DNA from: Candidatus Fervidifonticultor quintus
Lineage (GTDB): Bacteria; Sysuimicrobiota; Sysuimicrobiia; Sysuimicrobiales; Humicultoraceae
NCBI GenBank assembly: GCA_031459535.1
Contig: JAVKIJ010000006.1
Coordinates: 1 to 64,000, forward strand
Direction of reading: 5' to 3'
Length of the DNA stretch: 64,000 nucleotides
The position numbers were made by a program. This document shows positions 746-3,700 of this stretch, one piece after another. The stretch's first letter is position 1; each line of letters opens with the position of its first letter.

Positions 746-3700
746 CTACTGCAGCCAGCGCCCTCTCTTACGATAGCACGGTGTCGCAGCCGCCTGCCAT
801 GGCCGGGATGATGGAAACCTCGCTCTGCTCCTGCAGCGGGGTCTGGAGGCCCTGCTGCAGCCGCACATCCTCCTCGCCGACGAAGATGCTCACGAAGCGG
901 TGCAACTGGCCGTCTCCGTCCACCAGCCGGTCCCGCAGGCCGGGAAAGCGCCGGTCCAGCTCGGCGATCGCTGCGCCCACCGTGGGGGCCGAGACGACGA
1001 TCACCCGCTCGCCGTTGGTGAAGCGCCGCATGGGGGTTGGGATGCGAATGATGGCCATGCCCCACTCTCCTTACGCTGACACTGAAGCCAGGACGGCTTG
1101 CTCGAAGGCGCGAAGCGTGGGCCGGATGCGAATCGACGCGGGCAGGCTCTGGGCCACGGCCTCAGTGGTCTTGAGGCCCATGCCTGTGATCAGGGCGACG
1201 GTCACGCCGTCAGGGTCCAGCAGGCCGGTGGATGCCAGCTTGCGCAGCACGGCGACGGTGACGCCGCCTGCGGTCTCGGTGAAGATGCCCTCCGTCTCGG
1301 CCAGCAGCCGCATCCCCTCCACGATCTGCTCGTCGCTCGCCGCCTCGATGACCGCCCCGGTGGCCCGGGCCGCCGCGATGGCGTAACGTCCGTCGGCCGG
1401 GGTGCCGATGGCCAGCGAGTGCGCGATGGTCCTGGGGCGTACGGGCCGGATCTCGCCGCCGGTCGCGAACCCATCGGCCACCGGCGCGCATCCCGCCGCC
1501 TGCGCGCCGTGAATACGGGTGGTCGGCGCGGCGATGAGCCCCAGCGCTGCCAGCTCCTGGAAGCCCTTGTGAATCCTCACGTAGAGGTTGCCCGAGGCGA
1601 TGGGCACCACCACGGCGTCGGGCGCGCGCCACCCCAGCTGTTCGGCGACCTCGTAGGCCAGGGTCTTGCCGCCCTCGCTGTAGAACGGCCGCATGTTGAC
1701 GTTGAGGAAGGCCCAGTGGTGCTCCTCGCCGATCTCGGCGCACAACCGGTTGACTTCATCGTAGCCGCCCTCGACCTCGATGACGGTGGGACCGTAGATG
1801 GCCGAGGCCAGGATCTTGGCCGGCTCGATCCCCGCAGGGACGAACACGCAGGCCCGCATGCCCGCCCGCGCGGCGTGGGCTGCGACCGAGTTGGCCAGAT
1901 TGCCCGTCGACGCGCACGCCAGCACCGCATACCCGAAGCGCCTGGCGGCCGCCGCGCCGACCTCCACCGCCCGATCCTTGAACGACCACGTGGGGTTCAC
2001 CGAGTCGTTCTTGATGTAGAGCCGGCGTAGGCCCACCGCCTGACCCAGGCGCGGCGCCGGAATGAGCGGCGTGAGCCCCGGCGAGAGGTCCACGGCCGGG
2101 TCGTAGTCCACCGGAAGGAGATCAGCGTAGCGCCAGATCGACGGCGGCCCGGCCTCGATGCGCCGGCGCAGCGGCCGGCGCCGCAGCGCGCCCAGATCGT
2201 AGACTGGCTCCAGCGGACCCAGGCACTGCTCGCAGACATATACCGGGGCTGCGGGCACCTCCGCGCCGCACTCCCGACATCGTAACCGGTCGACCCCCAC
2301 CTCCGACCTCCTCTCCCGACGCTCAGCTGTCCAACGCGCCGCGTGACTCGATTGCGGTCACGATCACCCGGCTACTGACCCCTACCTGCGCAAACGCGCG
2401 ACGCATGGCCTCACCCACGGTCTGCGCCGCCTCCGGCGGGGTCAATGCGGCCACGGTGGGGCCTGAACCACTCAACGCCGCACCGTACGCGCCCGCCCGG
2501 GCGGCGGCCTCCACCACCGACGCAAACCCCGGCACCAACGGTGCGCGATAGGGCTGGTGGAGCCGGTCGCATAGCGCCCCGCGCAACAGATCGGGACGGC
2601 CCTGGGCCAGCGCCGCCACCAGCAGGGCGGCGTGTCCCAGGTTGAACACCGCATCCTGGAGCGTGACCCGCTCGGGCAGGACACGTCGCGCCGCAGCCGT
2701 CTCGATCTCGAGGGCCGGGACCGCCAGGACGACGGCCAGCGGCAGCGACGGGACGATGCGCGACCAGCGCAGCGCCTCGCCGTTGCGGGCGATGACCACC
2801 AGGCCCCCCAACAGGGCGGCAGCCACGTTGTCCGGATGGCCTTCGAGGGCGACCGCCAGGTCCAGCAGCGCCTGGGTGCCCAGCGGCGCCTCCAGCAGCC
2901 GCGCCGCGGCCACCGCGCCTCCCACGATGGCCGCGGCACTGCTGCCCAGGCCGCCCCGCAGTGGAATGGGGAAGTACGCGCGCAGTTCGAAGGCATCGGG
3001 GTATCCCACCGTCCGTGCCACGGCCGCCGCGCTCCGATAGATGAGATTGCTGGCATCCTGCGGGACGCGCACGCCGGTCACTGCGACTTCCGGCGTGCTG
3101 GCCCGGGCCAGTGTGATCTCCGCGCGCACGCCGATGGCCGCAGCCAAGCAGTCGAAGCCCGCGCCCAGATTCGCCACCGACGCCGGAACGCTCACCCTGA
3201 CCTGCTCGGATGGAATGGCCACGTGTGCCCCCATGTATACAGAAATCCCCTCCACTTCCTGCTGCTGGAGGGGATCTCACCCTCTTATCCGCCGGAACCG
3301 GATTCCGCGGGGGTTGGCACCTTACCGGATCGGCAGGTTGCCGGGGGTCATCGGGCCCGTCCCTCACCCACTCTTGATAAGAGAACGTATTCGGTTGCGG
3401 TTAGCGTACCATACTCCTGCGGGAGCGTCAACGCAAGTCGGGCGTCGACGCCAGCTCAGGCGGCGGTCACCCCCATGCCTTGCGCCGACGGCGCGTGCAG
3501 GTTGCGCGCGGCCACGAACGCGAGCCCGGCCTCGGTCAGCGCCCGGGCCGTGGCGTTCATCGCGTTGTGCTTGTCCAGGTAGTTGCGCTCCAACAGCGGC
3601 ATCTGACCGCTGGCCAACACTTCCGCCTTCTCGCGGAAGTAGTCCAGGACATCGGACGGATGCTCGCGGGTCTGCTCGACCTCCGGGTCGCCTCCCTCGT

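Follow-up and report, generated by a model that had tools for sequence, protein, structure and literature searches.

What does an operon headed by a SAM-I riboswitch produce if it encodes a homoserine kinase, a protein that passes for a threonine synthase and a small ThiS-like protein? The question is raised by a locus of Candidatus Fervidifonticultor quintus at the start of contig JAVKIJ010000006.1, of which the first 64,000 nucleotides were analysed (hereafter, the window). The initial annotation had proposed that these genes form the phosphohomoserine route to homocysteine, and all the parts that it had listed between 768 and 3383 are in place. They lie on the minus strand and read from 3383 down to 768: the riboswitch, thrB, the gene for a 409-aa PLP protein and the gene for a 96-aa ThiS-family protein. 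The operon is very likely a system of the MetM/MetO type, which would synthesize homocysteine from O-phosphohomoserine.

In Streptomyces albulus, a thiocarboxylate pathway formed by MetM, MetO, Mec and MoeZ was reportedly described by Hasebe et al. in 2024. A comparable logic is that of CysM, CysO and Mec from M. tuberculosis, which make cysteine from O-phosphoserine: on the PLP enzyme, the thiocarboxylate sulfur of the carrier replaces the phosphate. The S. albulus route is summarised in the available portions of PMC12172450, PMC13759103 and a bioRxiv preprint (10.1101/2024.10.14.618325). According to the first of these, as far as its available text goes, a SAM riboswitch precedes metM in S. 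albulus, and cyanobacteria have homologs. The available part of the second (GapMind, 2026) holds MetM, MetO, Mec and MoeZ from Streptomyces with their accessions and points out that threonine synthase is a frequent misannotation of MetM, and a 2026 preprint, in the portion available, treats the carrier route as known. The locus studied here shares with S. albulus a ThrC-like enzyme misannotated as threonine synthase, an adjacent carrier and an upstream SAM riboswitch, with Mec and MoeZ encoded elsewhere in the genome and, in this genome, no MetA or MetX. It differs in belonging to another phylum, in the inclusion of the sole homoserine kinase within the riboswitch operon in four families, and in the carrier tail, which is variable here and a single Cys in S. 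albulus. By this comparison, the locus very probably works like MetM/MetO and is MetM/MetO.

The riboswitch aptamer (RF00162) occupies positions 3282..3383 of the minus strand and matches the full model (1-108) with 86.4 bits (E 4.6e-19), against a gathering score of 44.4. It is the sole Rfam match in the 64 kb of the window and the sole SAM-I of the whole genome. A sigma-70-type promoter is predicted from the sequence at 3403..3431 (minus strand), with the -35 element at 3426-3431 and an extended -10 element at 3403-3408, and a TTGAY..TGnTA pattern appears at most 70 nt upstream of SAM-I in all 60 phylum matches examined. On the other side of the aptamer, at 3237..3278 of the same strand, a GC-rich hairpin with a U-rich tail constitutes the putative expression platform, an intrinsic terminator. 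When folded with and without P1 enforced, the 5' arm of the terminator can alternatively pair with the 3' strand of P1, and the nascent fold reaches -45.5 kcal/mol versus -43.5 kcal/mol with P1 enforced; in these predicted folds, the platform and P1 are mutually exclusive. The terminator tail of the window copy is weaker (U-rich at 6 of 10 positions, and interrupted), and a strict consensus scan called neither promoter nor terminator in this copy; a hairpin followed by at least five T in 10 nt is present in 59 of 60 SAM-I riboswitches of the phylum. Together, the predicted promoter, aptamer and terminator are arranged as in a transcriptional OFF switch, and the whole operon would be under its control. 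A translational switch hiding the ribosome site was also considered, the 3' arm of the hairpin resembling a Shine-Dalgarno sequence, and was rejected as the main mode because in relatives the tail is U-rich and a distinct purine-rich site follows downstream. Of the sequence words, a fraction of 0.55 was present in one hot-spring metatranscriptome, which consists of low-depth contigs that cover the upstream genes alike and is therefore uninformative on expression or termination. An upstream MesB-like gene and an upstream gene for a 431-aa protein were excluded from the system since they are found together in only two genomes, this one and L098.

The first gene of the operon, thrB (2323..3222, minus strand), encodes a homoserine kinase that exceeds the cut-offs of TIGR00191 (246.5 > 168.25) and NF002288. 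Judging from ortholog starts, translation most likely begins at a GTG at 3222, an ATG at 3234 being possible. It is the only thrB of this genome, and a single match per genome is the rule in the phylum (85 of the 86 genomes with a match). Searches of this genome for a second homoserine kinase, made with two alternative models and not extended to ThrH, gave no match to TIGR00938 and a best score of 245 bits to TIGR02535, far under its cut-off of 446.

The second gene (1071..2300, minus strand) encodes the MetM-type PLP enzyme, proposed to act as a homocysteine synthase on O-phosphohomoserine on the basis of family models, clade, fold and a complex model. The protein passes TIGR00260 (268 > 167) and fails NF006050 (265 < 303); the former does not discriminate, since paralogs of several other types exceed its cut-off too. 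Cysteate synthase was discarded as an identity (TIGR03844, 41.6 versus a cut-off of 324.9). The AlphaFold model (pLDDT 92.6) shows the ThrC fold, and no solved structure is closer. Like the short ThrC proteins from Thermus thermophilus (1uim/1v7c) and Bacillus subtilis (6cgq), it is a fold type II PLP enzyme for the same proposed substrate, with a TM-score of about 0.78 over the query and the SFKDR and ASTGN motifs kept; the PLP lysine, K108, is invariant in 80 aligned orthologs. It differs from them in its identity of only 33-39%, an extra cysteine ribbon, changes in the active site and its placement in a separate clade. The N-terminal CxxC..CxxC ribbon is found in 137 of 140 orthologs and in none of nine ThrC rows. 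In the same comparison (140 versus 9 rows), fixed differences separate N-x-N-x-R-P-x-Y in the clade from N-S-x-N-P-x-R in ThrC, P-x-x-S-G from P-V-G-N, and SLAIG from AIR. Y207 aligns with Arg160 of T. thermophilus ThrC and S236, by way of the ThrCs of the phylum, with Asn188, two residues that have a role in phosphate binding. Tyr and Ser occupy these positions in 140 of 140 ortholog rows, and Arg and Asn in nine of nine ThrC rows.

A tree was built from a selection of 64 out of 185 rows. In it, one clade (100/100) unites the window protein with its orthologs from the phylum, relatives from Chloroflexota and Armatimonadota, and a protein from Nonomuraea. The ThrCs linked to hom and lysC form a separate one (100/100), and other paralogs are also placed apart. 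Sequences had been labelled as clade members when they shared 50% identity or more with the window protein, which makes the monophyly of the clade circular in part; the informative part is the placement of the Nonomuraea protein, which sits on a long branch. The enzyme is in any case distinct from the genome's own ThrC, with 37% identity and separate 100/100 clades. The closest named records belong to Ca. Fervidifonticultor (78-84% identity) and ANGP1, followed at 55-62% by Chloroflexota, Abditibacteriota and Armatimonadota, and a SAM-I riboswitch lies upstream in 8 of 15 other loci scanned outside the phylum. The Nonomuraea record, the only one above 50% identity to the window protein in a search of a plasmid collection, combines a SAM-I riboswitch (68.7 bits), an enzyme with 52% identity and a carrier, arranged as in the window, suggesting that its protein is a MetM ortholog. 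No Streptomyces homologs appeared among the best 120 listed from the Nonomuraea protein (Streptosporangiales and unnamed), nor among 10 cluster representatives. The likeness to S. albulus MetM (A0A059WBP2) is drawn from published descriptions and from this 52% identical clade partner.

The genome is 88.85% complete. The initial annotation had located the true thrC with hom and lysC on contig C83, and a short ThrC is indeed found there, between both genes; a third ThrC-family paralog is encoded on C1. It had also reported no MetA or MetX, and neither was found in this genome at that completeness. C68 encodes a ThiF-rhodanese protein, MoeZ-like, whose best models are MoeB/MoeZ, although below their cut-offs, together with a homocysteine methyltransferase-MetF protein, and a split MetE is located on C127. 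A lipB-carrier-serK-cysM-mec-Rrf2 cluster on C55, where most gene names come from family scans of the orthologs in genome L187, includes a Mec-like JAMM protein and a second, CysO-like carrier (about 46% identical).

Fervidifonticultor is placed in Sysuimicrobiota (CSP1-3) in the available text of PMC11604079, and this phylum comprises one order and seven families in that of PMC11962464, matching the tables used for the searches. Counted at about 60% identity or more, orthologs of the enzyme are present in 80 of 94 genomes, including 47 of 54 of high quality, or in 79 of 92 without the unpublished genomes G016 and G024. The earlier count was 38 of 46, and the claim built on it, that this is the main route of a whole phylum, stands for around 85% of the genomes and not for all. 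A SAM-I riboswitch is found within 6 kb upstream of the enzyme in 63 of the 80 genomes. Out of the 17 without a linked one, 11 are cut by contig ends and six (G009, G013, G014, G018, G040 and G041) are true exceptions, with enough flank but no riboswitch at the operon. The result is 63 of 69 assessable genomes, the smaller sample scanned before having given 17 of 20 loci. The carrier gene lies directly downstream in 63 of 80 (three being cut), the previous figure being 20 of 30 loci. As already noticed, one family (f5, 0 of 12) has no carrier beside the enzyme, which is also the case in G093 and G013. For thrB, the 26 of 30 adjacent loci first counted did not generalize: it lies directly upstream in only 51 of 80 genomes (four cut by contig ends) and in 0 of 23 of family f4, and the direct adjacency holds in four of the seven families.

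These counts reflect several operon layouts. Families f1 and f3 have the riboswitch followed by thrB, the enzyme and the carrier, and f5 and f7 have riboswitch, thrB and enzyme without adjacent carrier. In f4, the riboswitch precedes enzyme and carrier, and thrB stays in a hom-thrC-thrB-lysC cluster, while in genome G092 it precedes hom-thrC-thrB-lysC-enzyme-carrier. The constant partner behind the riboswitch is the enzyme and not thrB. In total, 86 SAM-I riboswitches over the cut-off were found in 80 genomes, nearly always as single copies; 64 lie upstream of the enzyme, six upstream of metY-metA and 16 elsewhere. Among seven of the latter that were inspected, five head homocysteine methyltransferase-MetF or split MetE genes.

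One alternative would be a second threonine synthase, threonine being the main or an equal product of the enzyme; thrB and the enzyme would then form a threonine module in which carrier and riboswitch are secondary. The TIGR00260 match, the ThrC fold and the 51 genomes with adjacent thrB are what such a role predicts. There is also a precedent in Microcystis aeruginosa, whose 'ThrC', according to the available text of PMC12172450, has a MetO-like neighbour and is 51.6% identical to MetM, a value close to the 52% between the window and Nonomuraea proteins. By the same partial description, on which this likening rests, it differs from the window enzyme in having no SAM riboswitch and in its reported threonine synthase and deaminase activity, and it is not fully MetM-like in vivo. 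Among the 80 genomes that have the enzyme, however, 65 also encode a separate short ThrC. Of the 15 without one at the threshold used, G046 retains part of a copy where its contig ends, and G019, G020 and G021 each carry a different ThrC-family gene, of a 449-aa type, as expected if the enzyme were unable to supply threonine. In G005, G020 and G021, hom directly adjoins lysC and thrC is gone, and G005, which keeps only this enzyme and an NF006050-type paralog, speaks for a threonine synthase. Control by SAM and an invariant Gly-Gly carrier would make no sense for threonine alone, and a genus that lost the enzyme gained metY-metA, described below, and not a new thrC. Altogether, a main or equal role as threonine synthase is improbable, and homocysteine remains the preferred product.

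Support for this product comes from genus g12, already singled out as the one genus without the gene: neither the enzyme nor a MetO-type carrier is found in any of its eight genomes. MetA, on the other hand, occurs only in this genus (6 of its 8 genomes, 6 of 94 overall), where its gene adjoins metY behind a SAM-I riboswitch, both exceeding the NCBIfam cut-offs in the copy tested. The riboswitch shares 83.5% identity with the riboswitches of f1, the family of g12, and 64-66% with those of the remaining families, and together with its terminator it is of the native f1 type. The third-position GC of metY-metA is about 0.73-0.84, versus 0.8-0.9 for most neighbours. The most economical explanation is that an acetylhomoserine route was acquired and took the place of the carrier route under the old switch. 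This swap is one evolutionary event, not six, and the Fisher test of MetA against the enzyme was set aside, as the six MetA genomes represent a single genus. Neither route was seen in two of the g12 genomes, which are 73% and 95% complete. Mec and MoeZ did not disappear along with the enzyme in g12, where both are kept in 8 of 8 genomes; they are therefore not specific markers. Another oddity of the genus is the absence of hom from seven of its eight genomes, shared with four of four from g16. With this swap, the Nonomuraea clade and the complex model described next, the phosphohomoserine route put forward by the initial annotation is well supported.

The third gene (768..1058, minus strand) encodes the MetO-type ubiquitin-fold sulfur carrier (PF02597, 48 > 22.5), whose Gly-Gly, ending at 789, precedes a tail of six residues. 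G89 and G90 are invariant in 80 aligned orthologs, and the tails beyond them vary from none to more than 20 residues; by analogy with the known route, the tail must be trimmed back to Gly-Gly. The best PDB match of the carrier is CysO (3dwg_C, E 2.4e-19), which relates the system to CysM/CysO/Mec: both pair a PLP enzyme with a ubiquitin-fold thiocarboxylate carrier, and a cysO-serK-cysM-mec cluster is present in this same genome. The two differ in that CysM belongs to another PLP subfamily and performs a beta-replacement on a three-carbon substrate, while a gamma-replacement on a four-carbon substrate is proposed here. A model of the enzyme with the trimmed carrier and PLP scored 0.79, against 0.00 for the best of three controls, with at least 98% contact agreement between runs and a partner pLDDT of 90. 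Of the solved pairs, 116 of 157 reached the mark that it passes, as did 2 of 215 mismatched ones; these figures apply only roughly to this complex, and the pass may reflect likeness, since the CysM-CysO complex has already been solved (3dwg). In the model, carrier residues 84-90 follow the ribbon and helix 181-189 to the loops 200-204 and 235-238, and the tail enters the active-site loops of the enzyme, which suggests that the cysteine ribbon may serve to dock the carrier.

It could also be argued that homocysteine, or some other sulfur compound, is formed by the enzyme from free sulfide or another carrier, the adjacent carrier being dispensable or serving a different pathway. The lack of an adjacent carrier in f5, G093 and G013 would be explained in this way, and the CysO-like carrier of the serK-cysM-mec cluster could be shared. 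All f5 genomes (12 of 12), however, keep a carrier of the MetO type elsewhere, and the Gly-Gly carrier is adjacent to the enzyme both here and in the 63 genomes already mentioned, as well as near it in most loci from Chloroflexota, Abditibacteriota and Nonomuraea. In the passing model, moreover, 21 of the 38 enzyme residues that contact the carrier are at least 90% conserved, versus 149 of 409 overall. A source of sulfur other than this carrier is thus very improbable, and the carrier route is retained.

The remaining question is whether other genes could supply homocysteine. The initial annotation had found metX in 0 of 21 cases and no metA, metB or metY; this holds for the present genome, except for one PF01053 gene on C94, and not for the phylum, parts of which have MetA, MetY, MetB-like or MetX-like genes. 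MetX-like genes occur in 8 of 94 genomes, all under the cut-off; three of those inspected belong to peptide-transporter clusters, and in G067 a 2.4-kb contig carries metX-metY. Their scores do not speak against MetX function, since control genomes also scored under the cut-off. A more general possibility is transsulfuration, where a MetB-like PF01053 enzyme would join O-phosphohomoserine and cysteine in a plant-like manner and the operon would mainly supply the phosphorylated substrate. PF01053 genes are indeed present in 90 of 94 genomes, and one of them, in G080, adjoins a carrier and passes NF005871, 'cystathionine gamma-synthase' (581 > 513). This MetB-like gene also adjoins a cystathionine beta-synthase (TIGR01137 over the cut-off) in a cysteine cluster, with like layouts in other genomes. 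This neighbourhood suggests reverse transsulfuration, and the genome studied here lacks the gene. The single PF01053 gene of this genome, on C94, is cut by the contig end and unclassified; for its 79% ortholog from another genome, methionine gamma-lyase is the best-scoring model, though below every cut-off shown, and this type is kept in g12, where metY-metA is still needed. Neither of these two types was seen behind a SAM-I riboswitch. Homocysteine formed mainly by transsulfuration is hence scarcely credible, and the carrier pathway is again preferred.

Following the Streptomyces pathway as summarised in the citing papers, the chemical steps, and likewise the switching, can be inferred as follows. 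ThrB would phosphorylate homoserine. The Mec-like JAMM protease from C55 would trim the carrier to its Gly-Gly end, and the MoeZ-like ThiF-rhodanese protein from C68 would convert this end to a C-terminal thiocarboxylate; the action of both on this particular carrier is assumed from the known route, and Mec-like and MoeZ-like genes are present in 90 and 85 of 94 phylum genomes, respectively. The PLP enzyme would then eliminate the phosphate from O-phosphohomoserine and take up the carrier sulfur at the gamma carbon, yielding homocysteine, where ThrC adds water at the beta carbon. Homocysteine would finally be converted to methionine by the homocysteine methyltransferase-MetF protein or the split MetE. 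At high SAM levels, the terminator would form and transcription would stop before thrB.

The locus extends a known pathway and is not a new one. The pathway itself, the SAM riboswitch of S. albulus, the cyanobacterial homologs and the GapMind entry are already known. Consequently, the emphasis initially placed on SAM feedback and on an occurrence outside Streptomyces is correct as to the riboswitch over the operon and the other phylum, but neither is new, because the available text of PMC12172450 already reports the riboswitch over S. albulus metM and the cyanobacterial homologs. A literature search returned no paper on the carrier route in this phylum or on SAM-I over a homoserine kinase, and homocysteine goes unmentioned in the available main text of the phylum papers PMC11604079 and PMC11962464. 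The additions made here are the phylum-wide use of the route, the swap in g12, the diagnostic motifs, the modelled role of the ribbon in docking, and the SAM control of the sole homoserine kinase. A wider scenario can be offered only tentatively, and is doubtful when all its parts are taken jointly. In it, this phylum and neighbouring lineages of Chloroflexota, Armatimonadota and Abditibacteriota would have inherited the carrier route as their default source of homocysteine; in four families, SAM would shut off the sole homoserine kinase and gate threonine and isoleucine as well; and in lineages with thrC deleted, such as G005, one enzyme would make both products, the split being set by the amount of charged carrier.

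For the biology of these organisms, the consequences are practical as well as regulatory. Annotation pipelines name this gene threonine synthase and, without metA or metX, most of the phylum would be scored as incapable of making methionine; the evidence gathered here indicates that most members of this abundant, uncultured phylum from soil and hot springs are able to make it. The motifs of the clade separate the enzyme from ThrC, which the curated thrC model fails to do. In organisms that are not yet culturable, the metY-metA genes behind a native riboswitch in g12 provide natural genetic support for the function, and the control by SAM of a single homoserine kinase that is also needed for threonine is a regulatory oddity that can be tested.

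Downstream of the sulfur carrier gene, the minus-strand ligA (window positions 2-724) starts 43 nt past its end, and ligA is found near the operon in 50 of 82 loci of the phylum. As ligA is essential and here lies behind a terminator riboswitch, its expression would need either a promoter of its own or read-through.

On the other side, an unannotated gene for a 431-aa protein (3456-4751, minus strand) lies directly upstream of the riboswitch promoter; searches of Pfam and NCBIfam with this protein gave zero matches. Together with panB it flanks the gene for a 344-aa core methionine synthase-like protein (4748-5782, minus strand), MesB-like by eye, which retains both the His-x-Cys motif and the late Cys, and falls in Atlas clusters at 0.96-0.97, one of which holds 26% PF01717. 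Among the loci seen, the two genes co-occur only in the window and L098, and fragments of the 431-aa gene remain in L002, L006, and L007.

In Chloroflexota loci, the enzyme and carrier genes are separated by an 80-aa gene (L111:5184-5483, L116:5250-5492, L150:4832-5074, and L164:5230-5472). Its product, which may be NIL domain-like, had zero matches in NCBIfam at 1e-15.

In family f3, a second SAM-I riboswitch lies ahead of genes for a homocysteine methyltransferase-MetF and a split MetE (L193-L197; genomes G040-G043 and G045). The hom-thrC-lysC operon has lost thrC by deletion in genomes G005 (L238), G021 (L239), and G020 (L240), and a different ThrC-family gene of ~449 aa is present instead in G019, G020, and G021 (L232, L246, L253). 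Homoserine dehydrogenase (PF00742) is absent from 4/4 genomes of genus g16 (G040-G043) and from 7/8 of genus g12 (G026-G033), and both genera retain homoserine-consuming genes, which points to homoserine uptake or to an unrecognised dehydrogenase. At two g12 loci (L220:2743-4878 and L221:2820-4952), ThrB is fused with the aspartokinase LysC in a single 710-aa reading frame.

A second sulfur carrier belongs to a conserved cysM-mec cluster, with the order lipB-(CGL/MetB-like)-carrier-(CBS)-serK/SbnI-like-cysM-mec-Rrf2-sigma/anti-sigma (28.7-32.5 kb on contig C55 of genome G000; L185-L192 and L201-L204). Cysteine synthesis, too, apparently starts from a phosphorylated amino acid and relies on a sulfur carrier, and some families, with the CGL/MetB-like and CBS genes in this cluster, seem to use reverse transsulfuration in addition.
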